From contig CAWIIB010000001.1 in the NCBI GenBank assembly GCA_963836075.1, forward strand, positions 1,088,001-1,152,000: a stretch of 64,000 nucleotides of DNA, given 5' to 3'. A program made the translations under genes and the position numbers. The notes beneath the pieces are model-generated. The model was not told the origin of the DNA. It did not search any database and saw only the letters and a list, made by a program, of their open reading frames with translations. Within the stretch, counting starts at the first letter, position 1. Every line of letters starts with the position of its first letter. Below are positions 41,052 through 63,424 of the stretch, in pieces. The stretch is from an uncultured Acidobacteriota bacterium (GTDB taxonomy: Bacteria > Acidobacteriota > JAQAZP01).

Positions 41052-43721
41052 ATGATTCAGTTCAACAGAATCCGGAAGTCGGCCACATTCGCTCTGGCCT
41101 TCATCCTCGCCCTCTCCCTGCCCTGTCTCGCGGACGGGCCGGAATCATTCTCAACGATCCACCTGAAATACCAACTGTTCAGCCCGGCTGACGGCGAGCC
41201 GGACATGCCGGCGACACTGAAAGCCGACAGCGGAAACCCGGTCCGCCTGGTCCAGGTGACCGGCCCGCTGACCTCGGAGGAAATCCTCTCCCTCGAAGCC
41301 GCCGGTGCCACACTCCTCGGATACATGCAGGAAAACACCTATATCGCCCAGGTACCTGGAAGTGCGCTCAAGACCCTCGAGACCTTGCCCGTTGTGGTCT
41401 GGACCGGTCACTACCACCCGGCCTACAAGATCCAGTCCGGCCTGCTCCAGCGCGGCGAGGAGCGGATCGAGGTAAACATGGTGATCTTCCGCCAGCTGGA
41501 CGACGAGGCCCGGCGTGATGAGATCCACACCGCGGTGAGCAGCCTCGGTGGGGAAATCACGGCCGAGGATCAGTGGTCGATGACGATGCGCGCCCTGGTG
41601 CCCCCGGCCGCGGTTGCCGACCTGGCTGCCCTGCCCCAGATCAGCTGGATCGACCGCTACGATCCGCCGGTGACCAACATGAACAACATCCGCATCAGCA
41701 CCGGCGCAACCACCGCCTGGAGCGGCGGGTACAACGGCACCGGCATCGTCGGCGAAGTCAAGGACAACGGCATCGAGCAGGGCCACCCCGACTTCGGCAA
41801 CCTGATCGGAACCTATGGGGGCCCGACGGTGGACTCCCACGGCACGTGCACCTTCGGCATCGTCTTCGGTGACGGCAGCGGCAGCGGCAACGCCAGCGGC
41901 ATGATGCCCGACGGCGGCGGCGTGTTCTGCGACTGGTATGCCAGCCGCGGCGCCTCGCTGAACAACCTGGTCAACACCTGGGGCGGTGTATTCCAGTCGA
42001 ACAGCTGGAGCCAGGGCTGGACCGACAGTGACTACAACAGCTACTCCCAGGAGGACGACCAGGCCATCGTCGACTACGACGCGATGATGTTCTACTCGGC
42101 CAGCAACAGCAACTACGGCGTGGGCTCCGAGACCTGCTCGGTGGATGCCGCGGCCAAGAACACCGTGGCCGTGGGCGCCGTGTTCCACCAGAATACCTCC
42201 ACGCTCACTGACGACCAGTGGGAAAACCACGGTTCCGGCAACACGCCGGGCCAGGGCCCGGCGGCCGACGGCCGAATCAAGCCCGACCTCTGCGGGTTCT
42301 TCGACTGGATCTACTGCACCGACCGCACCGGCTCATCCGGTTACTCCTACACCAACTACTACGATGACTTCGGCGGCACCAGCGGGGCCTGCCCCATCGT
42401 GGCCGGCGGAGCCGGCCTGGCCTACGAGATGTACGAGGCCAATCACTTCGGGAACAACCCGGGGGGCGGCACCCCGCACTCGGCCACGATCAAGGCGATG
42501 CTTATCGCCAATGCCTATCAGTACAGCCTCTCCGACGCCACCCGCTACCAGCAGGGCTGGGGCCTGGTGGACGTGGACCGGATTTACGATGCCGGCCCCA
42601 ACATGTTCATCCAGGACGGCGGCAACCCGCTGAGCACCGGCCAGAGCTGGTCCACCGCGGTGGAGCGCCAGAGCGCCGGCGAACCGATGAAGATCAGCCT
42701 GGTCTGGAATGACGAGCCCGGCGAGTCCTCCAGCTCCAAGGCACTGATCAACGACCTCGACCTCACCGTCACCTCACCCGGCGGCACTGTCTACCGCGGC
42801 AACGTGGGTCTGGTGAACAACCTGTGGTCATCCTCCGGCGGCTCCTCGGACCGGCTGAACAACGTGGAGAACGTCTTCATCCAGAATCCCGAATCCGGGA
42901 CCTGGACCATCCAGGTCAGCGCCTACAACGTGGCCCAGGACAACGACCCGGCCGGTGGAGTCAACCAGGACTTCTCGGTGGTGGCCTCGATGGTCTACGG
43001 CAGCTGCCTCGACGACATCTACGAGCCGAACAACAGCTTCGCCACGGCGGCCGCACCCTTCGGCGGCACGATCAGCGAGCTGCGGATCTGCGATGGGGAC
43101 GAGGATTATTTCAGCTTCTACGCCGAGGCGGGAAACAACATCCAGGTGGACATCGACTTCATCCACGCTGACGGTGACCTCAGCCTCTACCTTTACGGCC
43201 CGAGCCAGTCGCTGCTGGACAGTTCCACAACCTCCACCGATGGAGAGACCGTCTCGGCCACCGCGGTGAGCGCCACCGGAGACTACTTCGCGCGGGTCAT
43301 CGGGGTCGGCAGCGCGGAGAACACCTACGACCTGACCACCACGGTGGCCGGCCTGGCCCAGACGATCCATACCGACCTCGGCTGTATTCCCGACACGGGC
43401 AACCTGCCCTACGTCGTGCAGCTCTGGTCCTCGTTGTGCAACGACAACAACATCACCCGCCGTATCGCCGGCCACCTCGATGTCCAGATCGCCAGCGGCA
43501 CCAACTACTTCAACTGGCGGGCGGGATACACCAATGTCGCTCCCGGCAGCTGCTACCTCGGCATCATCGGTGTCAACCTGCCGTCCCTGGGGTCGCTGGT
43601 GGGTGTCAATACCTTCACCCTGGTGGGTGAGGATGTCACCGCCGCCCCGTACAACCAGCCGCCATATTCGCCGTCGGGCGACACCGACATCAGCATCTGC
43701 ACCTCCACCGCTTCCAACTAG
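41052..43721 (+). CDS. Secreted subtilisin-like S8 peptidase with PPC-like domain and YNQPP C-terminal domain
   Basis: Catalytic motifs VKDNG, HGT, GTSGACP; DGRIKPD; NDLDL..NNVE. Confidence 0.9.
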   Translation: MIQFNRIRKSATFALAFILALSLPCLADGPESFSTIHLKYQLFSPADGEPDMPATLKADSGNPVRLVQVTGPLTSEEILSLEAAGATLLGYMQENTYIAQVPGSALKTLETLPVVVWTGHYHPAYKIQSGLLQRGEERIEVNMVIFRQLDDEARRDEIHTAVSSLGGEITAEDQWSMTMRALVPPAAVADLAALPQISWIDRYDPPVTNMNNIRISTGATTAWSGGYNGTGIVGEVKDNGIEQGHPDFGNLIGTYGGPTVDSHGTCTFGIVFGDGSGSGNASGMMPDGGGVFCDWYASRGASLNNLVNTWGGVFQSNSWSQGWTDSDYNSYSQEDDQAIVDYDAMMFYSASNSNYGVGSETCSVDAAAKNTVAVGAVFHQNTSTLTDDQWENHGSGNTPGQGPAADGRIKPDLCGFFDWIYCTDRTGSSGYSYTNYYDDFGGTSGACPIVAGGAGLAYEMYEANHFGNNPGGGTPHSATIKAMLIANAYQYSLSDATRYQQGWGLVDVDRIYDAGPNMFIQDGGNPLSTGQSWSTAVERQSAGEPMKISLVWNDEPGESSSSKALINDLDLTVTSPGGTVYRGNVGLVNNLWSSSGGSSDRLNNVENVFIQNPESGTWTIQVSAYNVAQDNDPAGGVNQDFSVVASMVYGSCLDDIYEPNNSFATAAAPFGGTISELRICDGDEDYFSFYAEAGNNIQVDIDFIHADGDLSLYLYGPSQSLLDSSTTSTDGETVSATAVSATGDYFARVIGVGSAENTYDLTTTVAGLAQTIHTDLGCIPDTGNLPYVVQLWSSLCNDNNITRRIAGHLDVQIASGTNYFNWRAGYTNVAPGSCYLGIIGVNLPSLGSLVGVNTFTLVGEDVTAAPYNQPPYSPSGDTDISICTSTASN

Positions 43722-43751
43722 CGGCAAAACGCAGCGCTGACCGGCAACACC

Positions 43752-43784
43752 AGCCCCATCCCCTGACCGGGGGTGGGGCTTTTT
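43752..43784 (+). terminator. Rho-independent terminator
   Basis: AGCCCCATCCCC..GGGGTGGGGCTTTTT. Confidence 0.8.
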
Positions 43785-43812
43785 GATGTACTGAACGAGA
43801 GGAGATCCGGTG

Positions 43813-45099
43813 TCAGACTGTGGCACCGAAGTAGAAGGAGAAGATTGCCAGGTCTTCACCATCGATGACGCCGTTGCGGTCGAAGTCGGCGGATCCGAGG
43901 TAGCGGAGATCGCCCTCTCCCGCACCGAAGGCGGCACCGATCATTGAGAGGTCGATGCCGTCCACCCGGCCCGAGCCGTCCAGGTCGCAGACCGCGGCGT
44001 AGCTGGCGTAGTGGTAGCCCATGTCCGGCGCACCCACGTCGGGCCCGCCGTCGGTACGGGTGGTGCCTCCCGGGGAGGATGTGCCCGGGTCGCCGGTGTC
44101 GAGACAGGGGCTGTCCGCCGCCTGCCCGGCCGCCACCTGGCTCAGGTAGTAGTTGCCCTCAGGCCCAGCGGCAAAGAGCGGGTCGGCGTCGATGCAGCCG
44201 GCGCCGGGAGGATCTTCATGGGCGAGGTCGCAGTATCTGATCACGGGGCTGCCGTACTCGTCGTAGACCGATGGGCCGGGATTCCAGATGATGCAGTTGA
44301 TCAACCGCGGGGAGCAGTCCGAACCGACATAGACATGGCCGTAAAACTCATAACTGTGACGGTTTCCCGCAATCGTATTATTGATCATCAGTGGGGAAGA
44401 GCCATCCCACATGGAGATTGTGGAACCGTAGAGACACTCGTTGTCATAGAGCAGATTGTTGATGATGGTGGGTGATGACCCGCGCCGCATCCGAAAACCC
44501 ACATCGCCGTCCCTGGACACTCCCATGCCGGTGATCACGTTGTCGATGATCAGCGGTGACGAGCCGAGGTTGGAGAAAATCGCGCTGATATTTGGTCCGC
44601 CGCAATTCCGGATCAAATTGCACTCGATCACCGGGGATGCTTCGTCGCCGCAGTAGATTACGGCGGAAGCGTAGGTCGAACTCTCCTCCATGATGCAGTG
44701 CCGGATCGTGGGTGAGGTGGAGATGCAGGTTATGGCTGTCCCGATGGTCCACTCATTCGATTCTCCGTCATGGATGGTTACGCCCTCCAGCACCGAAAGC
44801 TGCCCCTCGCCGCTCTGGAAGATGAACCCGAACCCCTCCCTTTGGCAGTCGATGATGCAATGCTCGGCCCCGTTCTCCGATCTCACCGTAATCGCCTTGC
44901 CCTTGAAGTCGAGGTCGCGGTTGTCCGGCCCGATATAGGTGCCGGATGCGATGACCACCGTGTCACCCGGCTGGGCCGCATCGATGCCGTCCTGGATCGT
45001 GGGCTGGTGGGCAGGAACGTGAATCTCGGCAGCAGGAGATATGGTGAGGGAGATGAGGATGAGAACGAATATAAATGCGGAAACAGATCTTATGGCCAT
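43813..45099 (-). CDS. Secreted beta-helix protein with dockerin-like/EF-hand C-terminus (paralog 1)
   Basis: TIQDGIDAA, DFKGKAITVRSE; DLDGSGRVDGIDL..DFDRNGVIDGEDL. Confidence 0.85.
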   Translation of the reverse strand: MAIRSVSAFIFVLILISLTISPAAEIHVPAHQPTIQDGIDAAQPGDTVVIASGTYIGPDNRDLDFKGKAITVRSENGAEHCIIDCQREGFGFIFQSGEGQLSVLEGVTIHDGESNEWTIGTAITCISTSPTIRHCIMEESSTYASAVIYCGDEASPVIECNLIRNCGGPNISAIFSNLGSSPLIIDNVITGMGVSRDGDVGFRMRRGSSPTIINNLLYDNECLYGSTISMWDGSSPLMINNTIAGNRHSYEFYGHVYVGSDCSPRLINCIIWNPGPSVYDEYGSPVIRYCDLAHEDPPGAGCIDADPLFAAGPEGNYYLSQVAAGQAADSPCLDTGDPGTSSPGGTTRTDGGPDVGAPDMGYHYASYAAVCDLDGSGRVDGIDLSMIGAAFGAGEGDLRYLGSADFDRNGVIDGEDLAIFSFYFGATV

Positions 45100-45144
45100 G
45101 GTTTCGATCTCGATGTTGTAAGTCTGGGCGTCGTTTCAATGCCC

Positions 45145-46425
45145 TCAAATGGTGGCGCCGAAGTAGAAGGAAAAGATCACCAGGTCATCACCGTCAATCA
45201 CGCCGCTGCGGTCGAAATCGGCTGAAGCGTTGTACCGGGGCTCGCCCTCGGACGCGCCGAAAGCCGAACCGATGATGGAAAGGTCGATGCCGTCCACCCG
45301 GCCCGACCCGTCCAGGTCGCAGACCGAGGCGTAGCTCGAGTAGTGGTAGCCCATGTCGGGGTGGCCGACGTCAGGGCCATCATCCGTGCGTGTCGTGCCA
45401 CCCGGCGATGACGTCCCCGGGTCGCCGGCGTCGATACAGGGGCTGTCCGCGTCCTGCCCGGCGGCCGTCTGCCTGAGGTAGTAATCGCCCAGCGGGCCGG
45501 AAACGAAGAGCGGGTCGGCCTTGATGCAGCCGGGGCCTGGTGGGTCGACCCACTCAATATCGCAGTAGCGAATGACCGGGCTGCCGCCATACTGATAACC
45601 AATCGCATTGCTGTTCCAGATGATGCAGTTGACGAGCTCGGGAGAGCAACCGTCGTAGATCTCGACAGCGTAGGACGGACCGTAGCATTCATTGTCCACG
45701 ATGGTATTGTTGATGAGGAGTGGAGACGAGTCGTAGACCATGCCGATGACTGAGCCTTCGACGAATGTATTCCCGAAGAACAGGTTGTTGATTACCGTGG
45801 GCGACGACCCCTTCCAGGCCCAGAGTCCTACAGCACCATCCCGGCAGTAAATACCGGTGACCTGGTTTTCCGTAACCAGCGGTGAGGATCCATTCTCACA
45901 GTAGAAGGCGCTGGTCTGAAGCCCCATGCAGTCCCTGACGATGTTATGCTTGATGATTGGAGATGCACCATTACCGCAATAAATCACGCCCTTGTTATAG
46001 CTGCTGCAGTTCTGGAGGACATTGTCGCGAATACTCGGAGACGACCCGAGGCAGATGATGCCGTCCCCGGAACCCCAGGACCGGTCGTGCCCATCATTAA
46101 TGGTGACGCCCTCGAGAACCGAACCCTGCCCCTCGCCCTCCTGGAAGATGAAACCAAACCCCTCCCCCTGGCAATCGATGATGCAGGTTTCAGCACCGCT
46201 CTCCGATCTCACCGTGATCGCCTTGCCCTTGAAGTCGATGTCGCGGTTGTCCGGTCCGATGTAGGTCCCTGGGGACAGGATCACCGTATCTCCGGGTTGC
46301 GCAGCATCGATTCCTTCCTGAATGGTGGGCTGGTCGGCGGGTACCCGTATTTCAGCTGCCGGTGCGGGCGTGGGTGAACAAAGGAGGAGGGCAAGCAGCA
46401 GCAGGATGGTGATCCTCACGGCCAT
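45145..46425 (-). CDS. Secreted beta-helix protein with dockerin-like/EF-hand C-terminus (paralog 2)
   Basis: Tandem paralog of 43813..45099 with the same architecture. Confidence 0.85.
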   Translation of the reverse strand: MAVRITILLLLALLLCSPTPAPAAEIRVPADQPTIQEGIDAAQPGDTVILSPGTYIGPDNRDIDFKGKAITVRSESGAETCIIDCQGEGFGFIFQEGEGQGSVLEGVTINDGHDRSWGSGDGIICLGSSPSIRDNVLQNCSSYNKGVIYCGNGASPIIKHNIVRDCMGLQTSAFYCENGSSPLVTENQVTGIYCRDGAVGLWAWKGSSPTVINNLFFGNTFVEGSVIGMVYDSSPLLINNTIVDNECYGPSYAVEIYDGCSPELVNCIIWNSNAIGYQYGGSPVIRYCDIEWVDPPGPGCIKADPLFVSGPLGDYYLRQTAAGQDADSPCIDAGDPGTSSPGGTTRTDDGPDVGHPDMGYHYSSYASVCDLDGSGRVDGIDLSIIGSAFGASEGEPRYNASADFDRSGVIDGDDLVIFSFYFGATI

Positions 46426-46550
46426 GGCTTCATACTCCATTTTATCAGTCAAGGGAATCAGGCCCCATGGACCCTGATGTTCATATCGTAAATATATATT
46501 GCCTGCACAGTATGGGCAAGTGAGAGGGAGAGGAAATATCCAATCGAGAA

Positions 46551-48374
46551 CTACCGCGCGGCCAGCTGCCGCAGCAGGGCCCGGAACTCGTCCCGGGAAC
46601 GGAAGAGCAGGGTGTGCGCCTCGCGGTCGCCGTGGCTCAGGGGCAGGGGCGGGATTTTCTGCTGCAACTTGGCGTTGAACATGGCGATCAGTTCCATCAC
46701 CTGGCGCTGGGTCATACCCGAGTCCACCCGGTAGCGGTTGCCGTCGAGCATGTCCAGGTCACCGGGCCACTTGGTGGAGTCGTGTTTGCGGCCCGGCAGG
46801 TCACCCTCCGGGTCACCGATGGTCACCCCGTATTCCTCGGGGGTGGTACCCACCTTGGAGCAGGAGTCGAGAGCGAACGGTTCAAGGGCGTAGAGGCAGT
46901 TCAACTCGATGATCTTCTCCTTGATCTCAAGGATAAAGGCCAGGGTCTCGAGCGCTTCATCGGCGGTTTCGGTGGGGAAACCCACCATGCAGAAGAGGTC
47001 CACCGCGATGCCGGCGTCGAGGCAGTTATGGGTCACCTGCCTGGTCACGTCCACCGTGGTTCCCTTGTCCATCCGTTCCAGCACCCGCTGGGAGGCCGAT
47101 TCCAGCCCGAACCAGATGGAGCGGCAACCCGACTCGACCAACTGGCTGCAGAATTCCGGGGTGAACGATTTGGTGTAGCGGGTGTAGCAGGTCCAGTTGA
47201 TCTCCAGGTTCCGGTCGATCAGCCCGCGGGAGATCTCACGCAGCGAACGCACCGGGATGGAGTTGTCCACCAGCACGATGTGCGAGGTGCCGTATTTCTC
47301 CTTGAGCGCCCGGATATCCTCCAGCACCACGTCCGGCTTACGGTAGCGGAACGACTCACCCAGCTTGAAATGGCTGCAAAAAGCGCAGCGGGCCCAGGGG
47401 CAGCCGCGGGAGGTCTCCAGCGGCAGCACCGGCAGCGGACTGAGATAACGGTCCAGGGGCATGCCGTCAAAATCGGGCAGGGGCAGGGCATTCAGGTCTT
47501 CGGCACCGGCCTTCGGATTTTCGACAATCATACCGGGGTCCGGCAGTTCGGATTGTGGCTGCTGCCAGTCACGGCGCCAGAAGAGGTTGGGCACATGCTC
47601 GAGGTTGCGGTCGCCGGCCATGGCCTGGGCCAGCCGCAGCAGCGCGGTCTCCCCCTCCCCCACCACGTAGCCGTCCACCCAGCGGTAGAGCAGGGCGTTC
47701 TCCAGCAGCTGACCGGTGAAGCGGTTGAAGGTGTTGCCACCCACCACCACCAGCGTCCTGGGCAGTTCCTCCTTGATCAGCCGGGCCAGGGTGAAGGCGC
47801 CGATGGACTGGTTCACCGAGGAGACCGAGAGGCCCACCACCGCGGGGTTCGCCGACTTCAGCCGGGGGACGCTCACCGCCCGGTAGTAGTCGAGGAACGG
47901 GTTCTCCTCCTCGTCCAGCGCCGCGGCGGCCATGGCTTTGGATGAACCGGATGGGTAGCGCATGCTGAAGGAGTAGAGCCCCATCTTGGTCCGGCCGTAC
48001 GCCGCAGAGGCCACCCGGACCGTCCGGTCTAGCACCGCGCGGGCGCCGTGAAAGCGCTGCAGGTGGAAAAACTGTTCGGGGTCCCGGATCACCCGGCAGG
48101 CTTCATCCACCCGCCCGGACAGTCCGGGCAACTCTTCCAGGGCCTGGATCGCCCGCTCCTCGCCCCGGGCCGCCCGTTGCTCGAGACGGGGACGGATCAC
48201 TCCCTCGAGATGCGGCCGGCTGAGCAGGAGATGGTAGTAATCGATGTTGTCGTCGCAGAGCAGGGTGGCAATGCCCTCGCTGCGCAGTTGAGCGGCCAGC
48301 GCCGGTAGTGCGAGATAGGGCTGCTTGGGGTCCCAGACCGGGGGGAAAACCAGAGCGACGTGCCAATCCTGCAT
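46551..48374 (-). CDS. B12-binding domain radical SAM protein
   Basis: SRGCPWARCAFC, VGEGE, GLES, MVGFPTET. Confidence 0.9.
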   Translation of the reverse strand: MQDWHVALVFPPVWDPKQPYLALPALAAQLRSEGIATLLCDDNIDYYHLLLSRPHLEGVIRPRLEQRAARGEERAIQALEELPGLSGRVDEACRVIRDPEQFFHLQRFHGARAVLDRTVRVASAAYGRTKMGLYSFSMRYPSGSSKAMAAAALDEEENPFLDYYRAVSVPRLKSANPAVVGLSVSSVNQSIGAFTLARLIKEELPRTLVVVGGNTFNRFTGQLLENALLYRWVDGYVVGEGETALLRLAQAMAGDRNLEHVPNLFWRRDWQQPQSELPDPGMIVENPKAGAEDLNALPLPDFDGMPLDRYLSPLPVLPLETSRGCPWARCAFCSHFKLGESFRYRKPDVVLEDIRALKEKYGTSHIVLVDNSIPVRSLREISRGLIDRNLEINWTCYTRYTKSFTPEFCSQLVESGCRSIWFGLESASQRVLERMDKGTTVDVTRQVTHNCLDAGIAVDLFCMVGFPTETADEALETLAFILEIKEKIIELNCLYALEPFALDSCSKVGTTPEEYGVTIGDPEGDLPGRKHDSTKWPGDLDMLDGNRYRVDSGMTQRQVMELIAMFNAKLQQKIPPLPLSHGDREAHTLLFRSRDEFRALLRQLAAR

Positions 48375-48557
48375 GAACTTGCCCTTTCTCCAGTGAATCG
48401 GGCCGGCTCGTCCACGGCCGGCGACCCTTTCATTCTAACAGACCACCCGGCGGCTGGTCACCTCGCTCCACCGCGACCCGATTGCGTTTTGACATTTCGG
48501 GGCCATGGAACTACTGTTGTTGTTCAACGTAAACCACACAATCTGACAGGTGCCCTG

Positions 48558-51966: not shown

Positions 51967-51983
51967 TCTGCCGGGGACTCTGC

Positions 51984-52082: not shown

Positions 52083-54702
52083 TCAGGGAGCCGAAGCGGT
52101 GACCGTGGTTACGTCGCTGTCCGTGTCGCCCGAGGGCAGGAACGGCGGCTGGTTATACGGCGCCGGGGTCACATCCTCACCCACCAGCGTAAAAACGTTG
52201 TCGCCCACCACGGTTCCCAGCATCGGGAAATTCTGGTTCCAGGATTTGGTGAACACTTCGGCCGGGCTGAGGTTGGTCCAGCCGGCACGCCAGTTCACAT
52301 ACGACGTCCCGTTGGCCAGCACCACGTTGATCCGGCCGGCCGCCCGGCGGTTCTCGTCGGTCAGGTTGCTCAACTGGGCGGTGAACTGTGTGACAAAGGG
52401 CAGTGTGCCGGCCGCGGGGCTGGCGTCGAGAGCCACGCCCACCGTGTCGGTGACGGTACCACTGCACTCGAACGCGCTCAGCGTCACGTCGTCGATATTC
52501 CAGCCGCAGAACTGCCACGAGGAATCGGTGCTGCCCATGGTCCAGCGCAGGTAGACCGTGGGCTGGTTGTCGGCAATGGCCGAGATGTCGTAGACCTCCT
52601 CGACCCAGGAACTGTCGCTCACTTCACCGCCGTTCTGCCAGATGGTGGTCCAGGAGGTCCCGTTGGTGCTCACCCTCAGGTAGGCGTGGTCGTAGGTCGA
52701 GGTCTCCACACCGAGCCAGCGCCAGAAGGAGAGGGTCACCCCGGTCTTCCCGGTGCAGTCGATGGCCGTGGAGGTGAGGTGCGTTTCACCGAGGCCGTTC
52801 TCGTAGTCGCCGTTCAGGTTGTAGCCGTAAACGTTCACCCCGGTGTGGCCGCTGGTGGGATCGGGGTTGCCGTATGCGCCGCCGCCGCCGGTGGGCTGGC
52901 CCCAGGCCCAGAGGCCCGCGGTGGTCCAGCCGGGATTGCTGTCCATGGTCTCGCTGTAGAAGACCGCGGTTTCACCCACCACGGCGGAGTAGTAGCCGGT
53001 GGGGGCGTTGTAGGGATCGGTGACCACGCCGCTCTGGTCCCCCTCGGCGCTGAAGTAGAACTCGGGGGTGTCGTCGCAGCCGGCCGCGGGCAGGGTGGCC
53101 TGGTAGAGGTCACCGCCCAGGGGCAGCAACGACTGGGTCTGGAACAGACCGCCGCTGTAACGGTAGTGCATGGTGGCGGAGCCGGGGACATAGTTCTCGA
53201 TGCCGGGGCTGACCCGCACGGTGACCGTCGTGGGCACGCCCGGGGTCAGCGATGCGGGTGCGCCGCCGGGGACCGAGACGGCAAGGGTGCGGGTGATGTG
53301 GGCGTAGTAGACGTCCTGCTCGCCGTTGTAGGTGCCGGAAAAGGCGAGGTGGGCCCCGGTGTTGTCCGAAACCATGTGGAAGTAGTCGCCCATCTTGTTC
53401 TGCTGGGGCCAGCCCACATGGGGGTCGAAGGACGTGGTGAGCGCCTCGTTGGGCGACCAGGTCGCGCCGGCGTCCTCGGAGTAGGAATAGTAGAGGGCCG
53501 AGTCATAGCCGCCGGGGTCGTCGCGGGTGTCGAGCCAAACCGCGTCGATCCGGCCGTTGGGGGCCACCGACATGGTGCCGAACCACTGGTAGGCGCTGGT
53601 GCCCGCATCGTCGTTGACCCGCACCGGAGCGCTCCAGCTGCTGCCGCCGTTGGTGCTGCGGGCGAACATCACGTCGCAGGGGTCGGGGGTGGAGGAGCGG
53701 TCCACCGAGCAGAGCAGGTAGACGTTGCCGTCGGTGGGGCCGCCGGAGCGGTCCACGGCGATCCAGGCCTGGCCGCAGCAGGCCGCCCGGGTTGGGACCG
53801 CCGGAGTAGAGGATGCTGCCGTCGAGGCTCACCGAGGTGGAGACGTCCCAGGTGATGGTGGAACCGGGGTTCTTGGCGTTGCTCGACCGGGCGACCACGA
53901 AACCGTCGCCGCAGACGTAGAGCTCGCCGTTCGGGCCCACGGCCAGGGTGCCCCAGTTGGACATTCCGCTCACGTTGATGCAGCTCTCGTAGCTGCTGCC
54001 GCCGTTGGTGGAGCGGGTGAAGAACCCGGGGTAGCAGGTGCTGTACCACTGGGTCCAGTAGGCGTAAATGTTGCCGTCGCCCACCCCGCCGGTCTGGTCG
54101 ATGGCCATCCACTGCTTGTCCCCGCCGTAGGCGTAGGTGCCGGCATCCCAGGTCGCGCCGCCGTCGGTCGACTTGAACACGTGGCACCAGAAATCGGACT
54201 GGAACTCGTCGGTGGTCAGGCTGTTGTAATAGAAGGTGCCCGCGGAATCGGAGTCCAGGACCGGATCGGAGCGGAACACCCCGGCCTCGATCTTGCCCGG
54301 GAAGGTCCAGGTGACGCCGCCGTCGGTGGTGTAGCCGTAGCCGGCCTGGCGGAAATCGCTGCTCACGGTGTCGAACTGCCGCCAGCCGATGCACATCTTG
54401 TTCGGGTCGGTGGGATCGACGGCGATGGAGGGCTCGTTGCCCGCGTCACCGAGGATATTCTGGCCGCTGCCGTTGACGTTGACCTGGGACATGAAGAACC
54501 CGCGGGAAGCGCTGTGGTAGGCCGGGCTGGTCTGCTGTACACCCTCCGGCTGGACCGGCTGCCGGTCGCCCATCGTCTCCAACGGGCCTACGGCAGCGGC
54601 CGTATCTACCTTCTTCTGCTGAATCACATCATCGGACCAGACGGCCGGGGTGACAACCAGGGCGGTCAGTAACACCGACAGGATCAACCAACGCTTGGAC
54701 AT
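52083..54702 (-). CDS. Secreted BNR/Asp-box (sialidase-like) protein with jelly-roll domain and YNQPP C-terminal domain (frameshift near 53775)
   Basis: Signal peptide; STDGGATW, STNGGSSW, SEDAGATW Asp-boxes; GWNIDDV. Confidence 0.8.
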
Positions 54703-55295: not shown

Positions 55296-55408
55296 GAAAA
55301 GCGCCCCGCGGGGATTCAGGGATTCAAAACAGCATGAATTCAGGCCGTGGTCTGATCGCTTGGGAATGGCGGTCAGGCAGGTGAACTCTACCGCTATGCT
55401 ACTGTTAT

Positions 55409-55437
55409 AGTATAGGTTTATTGCCTCTTTCAGTCAA
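55409..55437 (-). promoter_or_regulatory. Sigma70 promoter
   Basis: Minus strand TTGACT-17-TATACT. Confidence 0.65.
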
Positions 55438-55486
55438 CTCCTTGTTGATTCCATGAGCACATCGAGCCGCTGACCATCGCCCCTTC

Positions 55487-55510
55487 CCCGCCGCCGGAAC
55501 CGGCGGCGGG
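55487..55510 (-). terminator. GC-rich hairpin after the cytochrome gene
   Basis: CCCGCCGCCG-GAAC-CGGCGGCGGG; no clear U tract. Confidence 0.55.
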
Positions 55511-55524
55511 AGAACCGGTTCAGC

Positions 55525-58266
55525 TCATGGCGCGGTAGCGGTCACCGTACACTGGTCGGAGGCCACATCCCCGGCCGGCGAATAGGGCGGCTGGTTGTAG
55601 GGCACGGGAGTTACGTCCACGGCCACCAGGGTGAACTGGTTCTGTCCCACCAGTGAGCCCAGTCCGGGGAAATTCTGCTGCCAGCCGTTGGTGTATGACT
55701 CACCGGGGCTGAGATTGGTCCAGCCGGCCCGCCAGCTGGTGAACTGGCCGCCGCCGGCAATCACCACGTCGATTCGGGCTGCGGCGCGGCGGAAGGACGG
55801 GGCCAGGTTGTCGAGGTTGGCGCCCATGTAGAACGAGAAGGGCAGCGTCCCCGACTGGGGCAGGCACACCAGGTCCGCCCCCACGGTCTGCCCCATGGTC
55901 TCCAGGGCCACCGTGTCGGTCCAGACCACCTCCGGCGGACACTTTCCGTTGTCGTTCCACAGGTCATACATCTCCTGGCCGGTGGTGTCGGTGCTGTTCT
56001 CGTCACGGAGAAATTCCACGAACTCCCTGGTGGTACTCTGGTAATAGAGAGTGACCTCGACCGAGGCGGCCCCCTGGGGAATCATGTAGCTGCTATCGTC
56101 CCAGTAATGCCCGTCCGCATAGGTGTAGGCCACCGGCGCACCGCCGAACCCCTGGAAAGCGCTGTTGGTGAAACCCCGCGGCGGGATACGGTTGTCCTTG
56201 AACACCTTGTTGTTCAGGGCGAAGTGGTGCGACGGCCCGGGGCTGGCCCCAATCAGCGGTGCGGTGGTGGCGTCGAGGCCCAGCTCCGCCTGGTAGATCT
56301 TGACCTCGGCGTCATGGGTCAACGCACCGGTCAGCGGGTCGTAGGCGCCGCTCTCGGACAGCAGTGCCATTCCCTGGTCGTAGAACTTGACGTTGATCCA
56401 GAGACGACGCCCCTCGGGGTAGCCGGTGGGCAGTTTGTGCCCGGTTTCATTGGTCACCCTCACGTCCAGCAGAATGCCGTTCTGCACAGCGGTTACCGTG
56501 GCCGCGTTCTGCAGCATGTAGCGAGCCCGCAGGATGCCGGCCTGCATCGCCGCATCGTCCACGTCGTCTGGATAGAGACTTTCCAGCAGCCCGGGCAACC
56601 AGGTGCTGCCGCCGGTGAAATCATGCAGCGGCAGGTCGGTGCGGGTAAGCGGTGGTGAGCCGCGGACCGTACCGCCGATACCGGTGACGTCGCGCATGTG
56701 GCAGTCCTGGCAGATGGAGACGTAGTCGAGGTTTCCGCCGAACTGCGGGGCGTAAACACCGCCCGGCGTGTTGTAGTCGCTGTTCAGCCACTCGGAGTAG
56801 GTCCGCTCCAGGGCCATCAGGTTGCCCTTGCCAAAATCGGTGGCCGGGCTGTTGAAACTGTTGGGCAGAAAGTTGCCGCTGCCGTCGTTCTCGAACACCG
56901 GGTTGCTCACATCGTGGCAGGTGCCGCAGAGCGCCGCCTCCCGGTGGAAGGACGACTCGTAGATCGGGTGGGCCCGGTCGCCGTCGGAGTAGGGGCCACG
57001 ACGCTTCTCGCCGTCCGGGTCGAGGACATACATCGCGTTGCCGAACTCACTCGGTGATTCGTCCAGGTCGTTAAGAATGTCCCAGTCCACCGGGGGGTTG
57101 CCCGCGGAATAGACCGGGTCCACCATGCGGTGGCACTGGCCGCAGAACATGCCGGTGAGGTCGTCGTTCTCCAGCCGGCTGCCGTCGGTGGGTACCGAGC
57201 GGCCGGCCATCCAGCCCCGTGAGGTGTGGCACCGCAGGCAGAGGTCGCCGGAGTCAGGGACGAACTGGTTGCTCACCGACATGGCTGCCCGGAACAGCGG
57301 GTCCCTGGAGGCATGGGCCTTCATGCTGCCCTGCCAGTTGCGGTGCGGCTCGACGGCGTCGTCGTAGTCGCCGTGGCAGCCTGAACAGTCATCGGGGTGG
57401 AAGAGCATTCCGGTGTCAAAGGGCTGGCTTCCCGGCTGGTCGAAATCACGCAGTGTGGAGGCCACCACACCGCCCCCCGGGGAGACGATGGTGAAGGTAC
57501 CGTTGCTGTTGTCCTGGCCCACGTTCCAGGCCGTGTCGGTGGCCACGATCCGAATGCGGGCCTGGGTGGTGGGCCGGTTGGGCGGATACCAGGTGTAGCT
57601 GCCGGTGTCGGGAATGCTCTTGACCAGGGGCTGGTAGTTCGATCCGTTGTCCAGGGAAAGGTAGACGTCCACGCTGTGGATCGCACTGGCATCGCTGATC
57701 GACCACTGGACCGTGGCCCCAGCGTTGCCGGTGACCGTCTCCCCGCCGTTGGGCGCTATCACGGTGACGGAAGGTGGCGTCGAGTCGCCGCCGGTGGTGG
57801 GCACCAGGTGGCCGTTGATCTGGCTCAGGGTCACCAGAGTGGTCTGACCCACGTTGTTCGGAGTAAGCCCGGGGAAGGTGGGTGTGTTGGAATAGGTTGA
57901 GGTATCGGTGACTTCGGTGAGGGTGCTGAAACCATCGAGGTCGGGGTCCTGGTCGGCGATGGACAGGATCGCCGACTGGCGGCCCAGGGGGGTGTCGGTA
58001 AAGAAGTTGAGCGCCTCGTGGACCTTCACCCCGTAAGGGTTGCGCATGTAAATGCCGGTGAACTCGTAGTGACAGACGCCGCAGTGGTTCGGTTGGCTCC
58101 CCACCGTTTCGATGGTGGTGCCCACCGCACCGGGATAGACCACGTAGAAAGCGTCGCGATACTCTGGCCGGGCCTCTGCTTCCCTGGACGACAATCCGGC
58201 GGCAATCACCAGGACGGCCAGGAGCAGGATACAGAGATGGCGTGGGCAGATGGTGCGGAATGACAT
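55525..58266 (-). CDS. Secreted multiheme cytochrome c (6 CxxCH) with Ig-like insert and YNQPP C-terminal domain
   Basis: CGVCH, CSGCH, CLRCH, CGQCH, CGTCH, CQDCH; GHKLPTGYPEGRR; DNRIPPRGF. Confidence 0.88.
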   Translation of the reverse strand: MSFRTICPRHLCILLLAVLVIAAGLSSREAEARPEYRDAFYVVYPGAVGTTIETVGSQPNHCGVCHYEFTGIYMRNPYGVKVHEALNFFTDTPLGRQSAILSIADQDPDLDGFSTLTEVTDTSTYSNTPTFPGLTPNNVGQTTLVTLSQINGHLVPTTGGDSTPPSVTVIAPNGGETVTGNAGATVQWSISDASAIHSVDVYLSLDNGSNYQPLVKSIPDTGSYTWYPPNRPTTQARIRIVATDTAWNVGQDNSNGTFTIVSPGGGVVASTLRDFDQPGSQPFDTGMLFHPDDCSGCHGDYDDAVEPHRNWQGSMKAHASRDPLFRAAMSVSNQFVPDSGDLCLRCHTSRGWMAGRSVPTDGSRLENDDLTGMFCGQCHRMVDPVYSAGNPPVDWDILNDLDESPSEFGNAMYVLDPDGEKRRGPYSDGDRAHPIYESSFHREAALCGTCHDVSNPVFENDGSGNFLPNSFNSPATDFGKGNLMALERTYSEWLNSDYNTPGGVYAPQFGGNLDYVSICQDCHMRDVTGIGGTVRGSPPLTRTDLPLHDFTGGSTWLPGLLESLYPDDVDDAAMQAGILRARYMLQNAATVTAVQNGILLDVRVTNETGHKLPTGYPEGRRLWINVKFYDQGMALLSESGAYDPLTGALTHDAEVKIYQAELGLDATTAPLIGASPGPSHHFALNNKVFKDNRIPPRGFTNSAFQGFGGAPVAYTYADGHYWDDSSYMIPQGAASVEVTLYYQSTTREFVEFLRDENSTDTTGQEMYDLWNDNGKCPPEVVWTDTVALETMGQTVGADLVCLPQSGTLPFSFYMGANLDNLAPSFRRAAARIDVVIAGGGQFTSWRAGWTNLSPGESYTNGWQQNFPGLGSLVGQNQFTLVAVDVTPVPYNQPPYSPAGDVASDQCTVTATAP

Positions 58267-58393
58267 TCTCGACTTCCTTTCCCCGGGGGATTCACCGGAG
58301 GTCTGCTCCGGCACTGCTCAATCGGCGAGGAATATAAAACAATAATGGCAAGGACGGGTGGCCTGCCGAAACTGCCATTCCGCCCTGTTAGCT

Positions 58394-59948
58394 TCAATTT
58401 AGGTGGTGAGCACCCGGTACGTCAAGCAACGGCGGGCAATCCGTGCATTTTTTAAGGATGGTGATCGGCTTGTAGCCCCAGCCTTCAAACTGCTGCACCG
58501 ACCGGTACTGCAGGTCCCGGGTGACAATGAGGTGCGGCCGGTGTTGATGGAACAAAAAGTAATCCGGCTGGTGGAGCAGCAGGATATCTTTCTGATCCAG
58601 CTTCCTGCCGTCCAGCACCGACCGGGTGGTCAACCCCATGCGGTCCACCAGTCGAAGGTGGGAGTAGTATTTGAGGATTCCCACTTCCGACGAGGCCAGA
58701 GACTCACCGGCGGGGATGTTGCTGTTGAGCCACCGGGACAGGTTGAACAGGGCCTGGTAGCGCCGGCCAAGGTAGTGGATGTTGCGGTCCGCCCGCAGTG
58801 CGGCCATGGTCAGCCGGGCATCATGGGGAATGACCAGAAGGAGGTAGACCGCGGCCAGAACTGCCGCGGCCCAGGGTACTGCTCTCCTCAACCGTGATCC
58901 GGGACCGGAAAGACTCCTTCCCAGCAGGAACAGCAATGCTGTAAGCCCCACCAGAATGGCGAACCAGTGGAAAAATCGGGCGGAGAAGGTCTCCCAGGTG
59001 TGATATTTGGGGGCCCCGATCACGCTGTAGGCCAGCACCAGCATCCAGGGGTAGACCAGCAGGGCATACAGAAAGGGCAGATCTTCCCTCGTCCTGAACC
59101 GCAGCAGGCACGACGCGCTGAGCACGAACCCCACGGCAATGACCAGCAGGCGGAAGGGAATCAGTTCCAGCAGCCTCCGGTATTCAAAGACCTGAAAGAA
59201 GGTGAAGGTGAAATACTCGGCAAAGGGGCAGAACCTGGTCTTGGCGTAAAAGGTATTGGGCAGGATATCTCCGAAATAGAACCAGGAGAAGACGAGCCAG
59301 ACAACACCGGGAATGATGAACCAGAGCAGGCTGCGCCACTGGCGGCAGCCCCTGCTGAGCAGCATTACCGGCAGGACGAGGACCAGGGCATCGGGTCGAA
59401 AGAGACAGGCCAGGGCGGCCAGACCACAGGCGGTGCGAAACCGGCGGCAGCGCAGGGCTTCGAGAAAGGCCAACTGGGAAAAGATCAAACCGTGGGTCTC
59501 CAGGCAGATCATGTACCTGGCTGCCGATGGGTCCGGACAGGTGGTGCAGCGCCAGCAGCACGCCGGCCAGGGGGTGAAACCAGGCGCCAACCAGGCGGAA
59601 GATCAGGAACGCACTGAGGGTGATGAACAGGACACCGCAGAACTGGCCGGCCAGACTGGTCTCCGCGCCGGCCAGGGTGCACCCGGCCAGCAGGAAGGTT
59701 TGAGCGGGCGAGGTGAAACCCCAGACCCGTTCCCCCTCGTTAAAGACCAGCCCGCGGCCCTCGGCCAGATTCCGTGCATAGACAAAGGCGATGTAGGCGT
59801 CATCCATCCATGGCTCGACCCCGTTGCGCTGCATGAACTCGAACAGCGCCGCGCCACAACAGAGGAGCAGGATGATGACCGCCAGCAGGAGAGCGCCACG
59901 GCTCTTCTTTGACCCGGTGAAAAGCCAATTCAGATTCATATTGACCAT
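58394..59948 (-). CDS. GT-C type membrane glycosyltransferase-like protein (frameshift near 59540)
   Basis: DDAYI..YARNL..GLVFNEGERVWGFTSP; RPDA; YFGDILPNTFYAK. Confidence 0.7.
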
Positions 59949-59976
59949 TTTCCGAAGCCGCCGGCCGGATCAGGAA

Positions 59977-60378
59977 TCAACCGTGATCGGCTCCCTGCAG
60001 CAGGACACTCCTGGTTCGGGGGCCGTCGAACTCGCAGAAGAAGATACCCTGCCAGGTTCCCAGCTGCAGCTGGCCACCTTCGACGATGACCTGCACCGAA
60101 GAGCCCATCAGGCTGGCCTTGACATGGGCTGCCGTGTTGCCCTCGCCGTGCCGGTAGCCGCCGGTCCAGGGCACCATCCGGTCGAGCACCAGTTCCATGT
60201 CGGCCATCACTGCCGGGTCCGCATGCTCGTTGATCGTCACCCCCGCCGTGGTGTGGGGCACGAAAACGGTGATGACCCCTGCTTCGATGTCCAGCCGGTC
60301 CACGGCCTGGCGTACTTCACCGGTGATCTCCACGAAATCGGTCCGCTTCCTCGTTTTTACCGTCAGTTTTGTCTTCAT
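59977..60378 (-). CDS. yjbQ: Second, divergent YjbQ/UPF0047 paralog
   Basis: PHTTAGVTINE, EGNTAAHVKASL, LGTWQGIFFCEFDGPR. Confidence 0.92.
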   Translation of the reverse strand: MKTKLTVKTRKRTDFVEITGEVRQAVDRLDIEAGVITVFVPHTTAGVTINEHADPAVMADMELVLDRMVPWTGGYRHGEGNTAAHVKASLMGSSVQVIVEGGQLQLGTWQGIFFCEFDGPRTRSVLLQGADHG

Positions 60379-60452
60379 CCGCTCATGCTACCTGGCGGAC
60401 GCAGGTCTGACAACCCTCGATGGATACCCGCGGCCAGACTGCTGTACACAAC

Positions 60453-60480
60453 GGGGCCCGGGAGATCACTCCCGGGCCCC
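60453..60480 (-). terminator. Hairpin after the C25 gene
   Basis: GGGGCCCGGGAG-ATCA-CTCCCGGGCCCC. Confidence 0.65.
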
Positions 60481-60513
60481 GGTTGGAGTTTTAGTTGTCA
60501 GGCCGCACCCAGT

Positions 60514-63424
60514 TCAGGGCGCCGTAGCGGTCACCGTGCAGGCATCGCTGTCGGTGTCGCCGGAAGGCGCGAAGGGCGGCTGGTTGTACGGAGCCGGAGT
60601 CACGTCAACACCGGTCAGGGTGAAGACGTTGCTGCCCACCATGGACGCCAGACCCGGCAGGTTCTGGGTCCACATGTTGCTGAAGACTTCGCCGCTGCTG
60701 AGATTGGTCCAGCCGGCACGCCAGTTGGTGTACGAGCTGCCGTTGCCGATCACCATGTCGATCCGGCCGGCGGCCCGGCGGTTCTCGGTGGTCAGGTTGG
60801 CCAGCGACACCGCCATCTGGGTGGCGAAGGGCAGCACGCCGCTGTCCGGGGTGCAGCCGATGGTCACCTGCACCGTGTCGGTGGGCGGGGTGACATCGTC
60901 GCCCACACCCCAGATCTCCACGTCGTCGATGTTCCAGCCGGAATACTGCCAGCTGCTGTCGGTGGTCCCCTGGGTCCAGCGCAGATAGACCGTGGACTGC
61001 CCGTCGGCCACGGACGAGATGTCGTATTCCTGGAGGCCCCAGCTGGAGTCGGTTACCTCGGCAGTGTTCTGCCAGATGGTTGTCCAGGTGGACCCGTTGT
61101 TGCTCACCCGCACGTAGGCGTGATCGTAGGTCGGGGTTTCGACGTTGAGATAGCGCTGGAACTTGAGGATCGTGTCGTAGAGCTCGCTGCAGTCGATGGC
61201 GGTGGAAGTGAGGTGCGTCTCGGCCATGCTGTTTTCGTAGTCACCGGCAAGGTTGTAGCCGTAGACGTTGGGCCCGGTGGCGCCGCTGGTGGGATCGGGG
61301 TTGCCATACTGGCCGCCGCCGCCGGTGGGTGTGCCGTAGGCCCAGGAACCGGCGGTGGTCCAGCCGGGGTTGGTGCTCATGTCAAAGGTGTACTGCACCA
61401 CCGGCACACCGACGGTCAGCTGGCAGGTACGGGTGCAGTCGCCGTCGTGGTTGGTGGTGTTGACGAAGTCGATGTCGCCGAAGTAGGCGCCGTTGGCCAT
61501 GGTGTCGGCGGCGCTGGTGATCGAGACAGTGACCTCGACGGTGCCGCTGGAGGGGATGGTGCCCGACGTGCTGTCCAGGTCGAGCCAGGCCACACTCTCG
61601 CTGGCGGTGAAGTTGATCGGGCTCATCTCGTAGTTGGTCAGGGTGAAGGTCAGGCTGTCCGGCGTGAACGGTCCGCCGTTGGCCCCCTCGGAGATCAGGC
61701 CGCTGCCCGGCGTGACCTTCATCCCGGTGGGCGGGGCGGTGGTGCCCACCACCCGCAGCGACGGGTCGCCGAAGACGTGCCAGGTGTCATACATGCTCAC
61801 TCCGCCGGAACCGTATTCGTCGATCATCGAGCAGGAACCGGCAAAGCAGAGGGCGCCGTAGGTGTTGTAGGTCCCGGCCAGATACGCGGCGTTGAAGTGG
61901 TCCTGGCCTTCCATGGGCGGGTCCCAGGACTGGTTGATCGAGCTCATATACGCCCCCACCGCGCCGGTGGGCTCGCTGCCGTTGGTCGCCCGCAGCCAGG
62001 CCTCGGCAAAGCAGGTGTAGCCGTCGAACTGGCCGTTGACACAGGCCACCGAAACGATGAAGGGCAGCAGGTTGTCGTTGGTCAGGGCGTTGACATTGGT
62101 GTTGGAGAAGCCGGTGCTGCTCCAGGAGGTGGTTGAGCCGTGGCCGGTGTAGTTGATGATTCCGCGGCCGGCATTGAGGCCGCTGGTCACCTGGGCCGCC
62201 GTGCCGCTGGGGTCGTAGATCTGGTCCACCAGCGTGTAGTCGCCGGCCAGCATGTCGGCGCGGATGTTGTTCAGGTGCTCGTTGTCATACTCGCCGTCGT
62301 CGCCCGGGCCCTGGTTCGAAGCCACGCCCATACCCCGCCAGAACCATGTTTCCATGGTGGCCTGGTTGTCCTCGTATTCAACCGTGCGCTCCACCTGGGT
62401 GTCCACGTCGGCCGCCGTCTCGGCGGAGAACCGGCCGACAAAGATGTCGGGGTAGTCGTCACCGCCGGCCACCTTGGCGTAACTGGGATCGGAGGACCCA
62501 CCCGAGGCCGACGGCGTGTCCACCTGGGCCCCGTCACCCACCAGCAGCACAAAGGCCAGGTCGCTGGTGTTGTAGACCGTCTGGATGTGGCTGGCGATGG
62601 AGGCAGCGTTGTTGCCGATGACGGAAACCGGCACCACCGAAGCGGGGATGCCGATGGAGGTCTTGTGGTCGGCCAGCACCTGGGCGTTGGCCGTCCAGGC
62701 ATCGTGGCAGATGATCAGCATGTCGCCGGCCTCGTCCAGCGGAGCGTAACGGCCGTCAAGGTTGTAGTTGATGAAATGGCCGCCATAGATGTCGTGGAAC
62801 GAACCGTTGAGCTTTCTCTGGTGGGACCGCTCCAGCACGTTCACCTGGCCCGGGCCGTCGGCGACCACTTCCACGGTCATCGAGGTGTAGACGCGGAGCA
62901 CGCGCTGCACCGGGTTGTACTGGAAGGGGTTCACCGTCACCACCACGCCGCGGTGGTCGCGCATGATATAGGGCTCGCGCAGCTGCGCCAGGTCGGCGGG
63001 CCAGAAGGCGTTCTCTTGGTAGGCCTTGCCAAAGGTGAAGGGCACGCTGTCCTTGTCCACGGTGCGCAGAACAAACCCCTTGGAGGGGGCCACGTCCATA
63101 CCGTCTGATCTCGTAGTAGCGGCTGTCCAGCACGCGCAAGGCCATCCTGGCGTTGTCAGGGATGATCACGCTGCGTGACACGTCGGGCAGCGCCGGCAGG
63201 CCGGCCTCGTGCTTCAGGCTCTCCTTGCCGAGGCTGAGCGTCGCGTACGGGGTGCCGTCGATCAGCACCTTCTGCTGGCCAAAACCGTCAAAGCTGTAGT
63301 CGATGACCACACGGTCGGCGCCGTTCTCCAGGACGGTGACGCCCACCGGCTCAACGGCCCAGGCCCCGGCGGCCAGGCCGGAGACCAGCAAAAGAATAAT
63401 GAACAGGGGAAATCTGCTGCGCAT
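60514..63424 (-). CDS. Gingipain-like peptidase C25 with propeptide, Ig-like, jelly-roll and YNQPP C-terminal domains (frameshift near 63100)
   Basis: Signal peptide; FVLLVGD, PDIFVGRFS, NYTGHGS, SVACVNG, FGDPSL. Confidence 0.9.

Follow-up and report, generated by a model that had tools for sequence, protein, structure and literature searches.

The DNA described here is a window of 64,000 nucleotides from an uncultured Acidobacteriota bacterium (positions 1,088,001 to 1,152,000 of the forward strand of contig CAWIIB010000001.1, GenBank assembly GCA_963836075.1). Four proteins of different kinds encoded in the window end in the same domain, which is called the tag here. One tag copy is located on the plus strand and three are located on the minus strand, and each copy ends its open reading frame (ORF). 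A first-pass annotation of this DNA had reported an unrecognised domain at these four sites, and all four copies were found there, at the C-terminal ends of the ORFs. The carrier genes and the tag copies are as follows.

41013..43721, plus strand: exported S8 subtilase with a PPC domain and the tag at its end (Peptidase_S8 at residues 249-517, PPC at residues 696-762)
43341..43721 (coding to 43718), plus strand: tag copy 1, with both Cys residues present; it ends ...SN, without the terminal Pro, as in a minority of copies
52083..53756, minus strand: C-terminal two thirds of a BNR-like/MAM-like exported protein with the tag at its end (InhA-like_MAM at residues 329-427; BNR_2 below the cut-off)
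53503..54702, minus strand: N-terminal part of the BNR-like gene with the signal peptide, in another frame (single-base frameshift near 53775)
52083..52463, minus strand: tag copy 2, of the BNR-like carrier, with both Cys residues absent
55525..58314, minus strand: exported multihaem cytochrome with a signal peptide, six CxxCH motifs and the tag at its end
55525..55905, minus strand: tag copy 3, of the cytochrome, with both Cys residues present, ending in AP
60514..63099, minus strand: C25 (gingipain-family) peptidase, which according to family models comprises part of the propeptide, C25, a BACON-like domain, a MAM/choice-of-anchor-J-like domain and the tag
62756..63424, minus strand: N-terminal part of the C25 gene with the signal peptide, in another frame (frameshift near 63104)
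60514..60894, minus strand: tag copy 4, of the C25 peptidase, with both Cys residues present, ending in AP; its sequence was the query in the structure prediction

The carrier types proposed earlier (S8 with PPC, BNR-like with MAM-like, cytochrome with six CxxCH motifs, and C25 with propeptide) were all confirmed. In the S8 carrier, the likely start is a Met located 13 codons into the ORF, and the signal peptide follows it. The cytochrome shows weak MtrC/MtrF-like and ExtKL-like matches, all of them below the cut-offs. The BNR-like and C25 genes are each broken by one frameshift in this assembly. In metagenome contigs of related strains, one base fewer is present at 53775 (run X3) and at 63104 (runs X1 and X3). 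At position 59516, one base fewer is present in all four compared runs, and those contigs show 0-1 other differences over the compared stretch. The frameshifts of the two genes are probably indel errors of the assembly, and such errors probably also yield many of the partial tag matches described below. When the frameshifts are read in this way, all four carriers have signal peptides, as had been claimed; those of the BNR-like and C25 carriers are located in the other frame.

In the four-row alignment A1 (about 126 residues), the other three window copies show 48, 47 and 49% identity to copy 1, and 41 columns are invariant. These columns include the motifs GxLP, RRxA, WRAG, FTL, DVT, PYNQPP and GD, and they reproduce the consensus given by the first-pass annotation. 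The Cys pattern is also as annotated: the BNR copy lacks both Cys residues, and each of the other three window copies has both. A hidden Markov model (HMM) was built from the four copies and was searched against all stop-to-stop frames of the genome (G000; 6.23 Mb, 10 contigs, 64% G+C). The matches lie mostly between E values of 1e-30 and 1e-67. At a domain E value below 1e-5, 221 tag-domain matches were detected in 220 frames, and 189 of them are near full length. A chance similarity is thus excluded, and the family is far larger than the four copies first noticed.

Almost all near-full-length copies are terminal. They end 10 residues or fewer from the stop codon in 186 of 189 cases, and exactly at the stop codon in 129, so that the extreme C-terminal position seen in the window holds throughout the genome. 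The three non-terminal copies are accounted for by a frameshift within the last strand, a fusion of tandem paralogues, and a divergent internal copy. The divergent copy precedes a MAM-like domain, which is followed by a second, terminal tag copy. The fused frame has 1029 residues (G000:C9:2819390-2822476, minus strand), and its internal tag is located between two near-identical passenger units, as if two tandem paralogues had been joined through the loss of the stop codon after the tag. A further 32 matches are partial and mostly resemble frameshift fragments. Standalone proteins consisting of a signal peptide and the tag were considered and rejected, as the short matches are N-terminally truncated fragments. 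By a home-made gene caller (genes of at least 90 residues), the tag genes are 181 of 4081 called genes, about 4.4%.

The tag is about 122 residues long, and the median identity between copies is about 48% (range 14-99%). The terminal residue is Pro in 162 of the 186 terminal copies, and the final two residues are AP in 111. A set of motif positions is near-invariant across the paralogues, and the conserved aromatic residues are W, Y, Y and F. Cys residues occur at profile columns 14 and 119: both are present in 127 terminal copies, neither in 27, and only one in 32. The two positions co-vary (odds ratio 17.9, p=6e-12), which fits a disulfide bond that would join the first and last strands. The tag genes are clustered, as 91 of 181 have another tag gene at most three genes away, against about 24% expected. 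Between orthologues of G000 and its congeners, the median identity is 78.6% for the tag and 83.0% for the passenger, and the tag exceeds the passenger in identity in only 9 of 30 pairs. The tag is thus conserved about as well as the passenger, which indicates that the tags travel with their genes, and that they are neither homogenised nor unusually constrained overall.

The four tag copies alone gave no Pfam and no NCBIfam family at E values up to 10. No Pfam or NCBIfam model covered the last ~125 residues when the whole carriers were searched, and a sequence profile search of the PDB gave no match at E values up to 10. The domain was therefore rightly described as unrecognised. The database names of the orthologues ('hypothetical protein', 'serine protease AprX', 'gingipain R') give no information on the domain, and a full-text literature search, judged by title and abstract, found no title or abstract on such a domain.

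An AlphaFold2 model of copy 4 was calculated from the 23-row alignment A2. The mean predicted local distance difference test (pLDDT) score is 96.1 and the predicted template-modelling (pTM) score is 0.86. The predicted fold is an immunoglobulin (Ig)-like beta-sandwich of eight strands with no helix, and the conserved Pro/Tyr-rich segment DVTPAPYNQPPYPP[SA]GD is an ordered loop that links the last two strands. The disulfide-closed beta-sandwich suggested by the first-pass annotation thus agrees with the model and with the co-variation of the two Cys residues. The last element of the domain is a beta strand, the sequence closes with ...AP and no hydrophobic tail is present, in agreement with the earlier statement that it lacks a transmembrane tail and is not PEP-CTERM-like or LPXTG-like.

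The model was compared with the PDB using Foldseek, and with 48,161 representative chains using an independent aligner. The neighbours form a broad Ig-like set with 5-15% identity, and macroglobulin MG domains and PKD are also among them. The best neighbour is RbmA (Z 12.4, root-mean-square deviation (rmsd) 2.4 Å, 105 residues), followed by a transglutaminase barrel (Z 11.4), the Ig-like domain of AlkC (Z 11.4) and the CARDB structure 3idu (Z 10.1). Further neighbours are the N-terminal sandwich domains of dextranases and CITase, and the carbohydrate-binding module (CBM) entry 2c4x (Z 8.8). No chain of a C-terminal domain (CTD) of the type IX secretion system (T9SS) is among the fold matches listed, which is not evidence of absence. 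In the ESM Atlas, the nearest clusters are CARDB/DUF11 at 0.85-0.87, which serves as a lead only. No match to the CARDB HMM was found in the whole of G000, although 7 of 14 control genomes contain one. A confident match to FlgD-Ig, a T9SS CTD or CARDB, which would have spoken against a new domain, did not arise: FlgD_ig gave one sub-threshold match per genome, and the similarity to CARDB is at the level of the fold (13% identity). According to these results, the tag is a new sequence family with a common fold, and it is possibly a remote branch of a CARDB-like group. What is new is the family, its host lineage and the apparent absence of a known cognate machine; folded C-terminal tags as a kind are already known.

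The tag is restricted to one lineage. It was found in 3 of 31 sampled relatives: G000 and two of its congeners, each of which has at least 112-140 matches. These three genomes are the only members of their class in the genome collection, and all three carry the tag. In the survey of the phylum, the tag is present in 3 of 401 genomes and in 1 of 227 genera, and it is absent from the 398 other genomes searched. The lineage specificity that had been presumed is thus borne out, with a single class-level lineage labelled Acidobacteriota. At the loci of the congeners, 45 of 45 full tag copies are terminal.

A pattern scan of about 186,000 species (one genome each) gave 43 loci, all in three records of metagenome-assembled genomes (MAGs); the scan rests on two motifs, and divergent forms would be missed. 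The titles of the three MAGs are 'Acidobacteriota bacterium', 'uncultured bacterium' and 'Candidatus Sulfomarinibacteraceae'. In the last of these, the tag is located on one contig of 4.2 kb with two tag genes (locus L058). This contig is the sole occurrence in the pattern scan outside the three genomes of the genus, and its G+C content is 58%, against 64% in G000. It represents either a second lineage or a mis-binned contig. In a HMMER search, 512 of 1.84 billion cluster representatives matched at E values up to 1e-3, and 385 of these at E values up to 1e-30. Because each genome holds about 190 divergent copies, the 512 representatives amount to only a few genomes' worth. Among the 150 best representatives, the tag is C-terminal in 146, and two full copies are present in 8 (back to back in 7). 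DNA of the window occurs in sediment, salt-marsh and soil metagenomes, and no RNA dataset is among the public datasets listed as matching it.

The passengers are diverse. A Pfam family was found in 44 of 81 tag-bearing representatives, and none of these families covers the tag. The most frequent are Beta_helix/NosD (12), S8 (4), FG-GAP types (4), C25 (2) and M28 (2). M14, papain C1, GH5, CBM96, FGE-sulfatase, LamG, LTD, F5/8 type C, a BamB-like propeller and others occur once each. All the identified families are of extracytoplasmic kinds. Signal peptides were evaluated with a home-made test (a basic residue followed by a 10-residue uncharged hydrophobic window). A signal-peptide-like start was found in 83 of 90 representatives of at least 450 residues, against 891 of 3900 non-tag genes of G000. 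For the tag genes of G000, the count is 90 of 169 under strict rules; it is 122 of 169 when alternative starts are allowed, against 1271 of 3900. The negatives in G000 are mostly N-terminally truncated fragments. A lipobox-like motif is present in only 2 of 99 positives. The extracytoplasmic cargo and the signal-peptide-like starts support the earlier claim that the carriers are exported.

A second recurrent C-terminal module was observed in the same genome. An FG-GAP-type propeller tail is located on 118 tag-less proteins (for example P0360, P0168 and P0174), of which 81 have a signal-peptide-like start. Among the proteins with this tail are S8 and C25 proteases that have tag-bearing paralogues. 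At least three alternative C-terminal modules are thus in use in the genome, namely the tag, the FG-GAP propeller and dockerin.

The exchange between the tag and dockerin was followed using the 120 best homologues of each window protease. The C25 homologues show 62-100% identity over the catalytic part, and many are titled Planctomycetota or Phycisphaerae. The tag is present on 9 of them, directly after the GWNxDD motif of the MAM/choice-of-anchor-J-like domain in 8. A tail with a double Ca-loop-like pattern ends at least 51 of the 120, and in 44 it directly follows the same GWNxDD motif. The Pfam model Dockerin_1 was detected in 30 of 50 tested C25 tails at E values up to 0.01, and in 11 of these the score exceeds the gathering threshold; the match is always located within the last ~70 residues. 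The first-pass annotation had assumed that a T9SS CTD normally occupies this position in C25 gingipains. This assumption did not hold here, as a dockerin-like module forms the C-terminal end of the closest C25 homologues (62-73% identity). Among the 120 S8 homologues, the tag is present on 8, and a terminal Dockerin_1 is present on 11 (43-47% identity, one titled Zixibacteria).

The same exchange is seen beside the tag genes of the window, where two adjacent proteins without the tag end in Dockerin_1.

43813..45099 and 45145..46452, minus strand: two beta-helix proteins (Beta_helix/NosD) with Dockerin_1 at residues ~372-426

These two proteins have paralogues in the genome that end in the tag, with 35-41% identity over residues ~1-333. 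The genus keeps small ordinary sets of both partners of the dockerin system, with 8-12 dockerin and 2-4 cohesin matches per genome. On homologous passengers, either the tag or dockerin thus stands at one and the same junction. With a dockerin-like module at the position of the tag in the C25 homologues, the position speaks for docking or anchoring no less strongly than for an export signal.

Taken together, about 190 otherwise unrelated exported proteins share one C-terminal domain, which is probably a common address or anchor tag. The strict terminality, the conserved last residue, the signal peptides, the diversity of the cargo and the restriction to one lineage define it as a shared tag. 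As to its function, we favour a lineage-specific, independently folding tag for docking or anchoring, and we estimate the probability of this reading to be about one half. It is the best supported because of the exchange with dockerin, the tandem copies, the adhesin-like fold, the cytochrome cargo and the lack of a detectable dedicated exporter. Two full copies in one protein, as found in 8 of the 150 representatives, count for docking, as this is typical of binding modules. Anchoring is favoured since cargo such as cytochromes would be useless if lost from the cell.

The proposed mechanism is as follows. The tag would fold in the periplasm after Sec export, and a disulfide bond would staple the first strand to the last strand in most copies. 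The conserved surface, which comprises the NWRAG strand, the ordered loop DVTPAPYNQPPYPP[SA]GD and the near-invariant terminal ...AP, would be the recognition site. This surface would bind a single envelope partner common to all carriers, which could be a protein scaffold or a glycan of the cell surface. The binding would keep or organise the cargo at the cell surface, and the tag would play the part that dockerin has in the closest homologues of these proteins. Passage through the outer membrane would need a route that accepts folded proteins. An operon resembling those of the type II secretion system (T2SS) and type IV filaments is present in the genome, but no evidence ties this operon to the tag.

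The operon (G000:C1:2168955-2180427, locus L072) encodes a secretin of 834 residues, which comprises TPR, FecR_C, Secretin_N, Secretin and a C-terminal Cohesin (residues 705-804). The secretin-cohesin fusion is present in the three tag genomes and in 93 of 201 genomes of the phylum (a tally that includes the unpublished genome G151). It was set aside as a tag-specific receptor, since it is so widespread. It could dock dockerin-tagged proteins at the secretion pore.

Other candidates for a partner were sought around the tag and among large proteins. In the neighbourhoods of the 181 tag genes, only cargo paralogues and fragments are clearly enriched, and small families reach p values of about 0.002-0.01 before correction. 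No scaffoldin and no SprA-like barrel was found among the largest tag-less proteins screened. As a side observation, two proteins of about 2180 residues combine a TamB/AsmA-like part, POTRA and an Omp85 barrel in one polypeptide, which amounts to a TamB-TamA fusion (G000:C9:2267534-2274079 and G000:C9:1011957-1018487; loci L078 and L079). Two other gene families were noted in the window. A B12-binding radical SAM protein (46551-48374, minus strand) is one of 36 paralogues in the genome, and 9 of the 36 are located at most two genes from a tag gene (p about 0.05, uncorrected). A protein of 1303 residues with DUF2341 and a LamG-like domain (24698-28609, minus strand) belongs to a small family, members of which are located elsewhere in the genome near cohesin-bearing and tag-bearing genes.

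Several points weigh against docking or anchoring. An export signal would account just as well for the strict terminality and the conserved last residue. Because the family has expanded by paralogy, many copies owe their terminal position to descent and were not placed there independently. Between congener orthologues, the tag is not better conserved than its passenger. The location at the same position as dockerin shows what fits there, not an equal function. No partner was found among the gene families beside the tag genes, and the one striking candidate, the secretin-cohesin, is not specific to the tag lineage. In addition, the signal-peptide heuristic is home-made and has a high background.

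The rival that survives best is a dedicated signal for export across the outer membrane, comparable to the T9SS CTD, with a translocon of its own; the tag might then be cleaved or used for covalent attachment. The number of copies resembles a large T9SS cargo set, and the tag is strictly C-terminal with a conserved final Pro. T9SS CTDs are Ig-like sandwiches, as is the tag. The proteases, beta-helix adhesin-like proteins and cytochromes resemble T9SS cargo, and the genus has many peptidases of C25, the family of the T9SS sortase PorU (21 matches in G000). However, no machine was detected. SprA (TIGR04189) was found in none of the three tag genomes and had no candidate at first look, and GldM (TIGR03517) was likewise found in none; both are weak blanks, as the control genomes were silent. 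PorV (NF033710) was also found in none of the three, and its control matched in B. thetaiotaomicron. Por_Secre_tail (PF18962) gave no match in the three genomes, a weak blank with a silent control, and TIGR04183 gave none in G000, again with a silent control. The direct search of the four tag copies against Pfam and NCBIfam, which also gave no T9SS CTD family, is independent of these controls. No T9SS-positive genome was among the controls of the core-component searches.

The C25 peptidases do not provide a convincing sortase either. The best scores with the PorU model (NF033707) are 201.7 bits in G000, 218 in G001 and 74.9 in G002, against a cut-off of 420. The C25 protein of 914 residues that gives the best score in G000 was considered as a sortase and rejected, since it has no tag, it is located in an operon resembling those for ribosomally synthesised and post-translationally modified peptides (RiPPs), and nothing above 75 bits is present in G002. 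This operon (G000:C1:1026742-1032534; locus L069, 8742-14534, minus strand) has four genes, which encode a radical-SAM/SPASM protein with PqqD, an HprK-related-kinase-A-like protein, the C25 protein and an S24/S26-like peptidase. The operon recurs in G001 and was not seen in G002. The tandem and internal tag copies, and the docking module at the equivalent position of close homologues where a secretion signal would be expected, also speak against an export signal, and we consider this reading rather unlikely.

The first-pass annotation had proposed an export or attachment tag recognised by a dedicated machine or S-layer. The terminal position, the exported carriers and the lineage restriction support the tag, whereas the machine and an S-layer partner are hypothetical; SprA, GldM, PorV and exosortase were not found in the three genomes. 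A wider proposal is that the tag is the cargo signal of a previously undescribed sorting system, which would have evolved in a lineage without T9SS or exosortase, would include its own outer-membrane machine for export or attachment and would serve about 4% of the proteome; this seems unlikely. As a bolder idea, the Thr/Ser-rich tag might be a substrate of GT-C glycosyltransferases (PMT/TMTC/TMEM260-like), and the cargo might be anchored via the added glycan.

A carbohydrate- or polymer-binding module would target the enzymes to an environmental substrate or a biofilm matrix and not to the cell. The tag has the size of a CBM and folds as a beta-sandwich in which aromatic residues are conserved, its fold neighbours include the RbmA matrix scaffold, the sandwich domains of dextranases and CITase, and a CBM, tandem copies occur, and the organism dwells in sediment according to the sediment and salt-marsh metagenomes. 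However, the tag matches no Pfam CBM family, and CBMs are not normally so strictly terminal. Targeting to a single glycan is unexpected for cytochromes, FG-GAP proteins, FGE-sulfatase-type proteins and many proteases, and a lineage-restricted module on about 4% of the genes would be unusual for a CBM. We regard this reading as decidedly improbable. The tag might also be passive and purely structural, serving as a spacer, as a stabiliser or as an aid to folding like PPC or the P-domain, and might have been spread by paralogous expansion with no address role. This would agree with the generic Ig-like fold, with the evolution of the tag at about the rate of the passenger, and with the single-linkage paralogue group that holds many carriers (104 tagged among 309 members). 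It is very improbable, however, since the passengers, catalytic and non-catalytic, are of a dozen or more unrelated types, which requires repeated shuffling that always landed C-terminally. Surface motifs and a terminal Pro that are strongly conserved despite the overall identity of about 48%, and the exchange with dockerin at the same junction, also speak against it.

Docking or anchoring therefore remains the reading that we favour, and the family is of interest beyond this genome. Earlier shared C-terminal tags (the T9SS CTD, dockerin, PEP-CTERM and LPXTG) each led to a secretion, sorting or assembly machine. Here an uncatalogued tag is located on about 190 proteins per genome, about 4% of the genes, in a deep uncultured sediment lineage in which the machines searched for were not found. 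The tag would provide a handle on the surface display of proteases, adhesin-like proteins and extracellular cytochromes in this lineage, and a marker, readable from sequence, that predicts its exoproteome. The natural swap between the tag and dockerin at the same junction is testable by experiment. An HMM of the family would also improve the annotation of several hundred proteins now called hypothetical.

The tag was compared with known systems. PEP-CTERM and LPXTG signals consist of a short motif, a hydrophobic helix and a basic tail, whereas the tag has no hydrophobic tail, and exosortase (PF09721) was found in none of the three tag genomes (the control matched in 1). CARDB (PF07705; 3idu and 2kl6) has an Ig-like sandwich as the tag does: 3idu is superposed with an rmsd of 3.0 Å over 103 residues, and the Foldseek E values are about 2e-4 to 5e-4 (2kl6, E 2.2e-4, TM 0.55/0.63). 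Many unrelated Ig-like chains are similar to the same degree. CARDB has 12-14% identity to the tag and is usually internal and repeated, whereas the tag is single and terminal. The fibronectin type III (FnIII) domain of RbmA, the biofilm scaffold of Vibrio cholerae (4be5), is a matrix-binding scaffold domain and the best fold neighbour. Its identity to the tag is 8%, so that the likeness is at the fold level only, and many unrelated Ig-like domains are at most 2 Z units away.

The type A CTD of the T9SS (PF18962/TIGR04183) is closer in its manner of use. Like the tag, it is a folded all-beta domain that many unrelated Sec-exported proteins of a single genome carry at the extreme C-terminus. 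The number of carriers is comparable, and the cargo spectrum is similar and includes C25 and S8 proteases. On the other hand, the tag shows no sequence match to it and is about 122 residues long, against model lengths of 72-75 positions. The usual Cys pair, the conserved terminal Pro and the tandem copies also distinguish the tag, and the T9SS core proteins were not found in the three tag genomes (with silent controls for SprA and GldM). Acidobacteriota, the label of the tag lineage, is not among the phyla in which the T9SS is known.

The type I dockerin (PF00404) differs from the tag in its structure: it has about 60 residues with two Ca-binding loop-helix repeats, whereas the tag is a beta-sandwich of about 122 residues. 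Dockerin_1 has no match on the four carriers or on the tag alone, and neither Ca-loop repeats nor a helix is present in the tag model. The two modules are alike in their location. In close C25 homologues, dockerin is located at the very C-terminus right after the MAM-like domain, and it occupies the position of the tag in S8 homologues and in the beta-helix paralogues of this genome. Both modules form the tails of many exported proteins.

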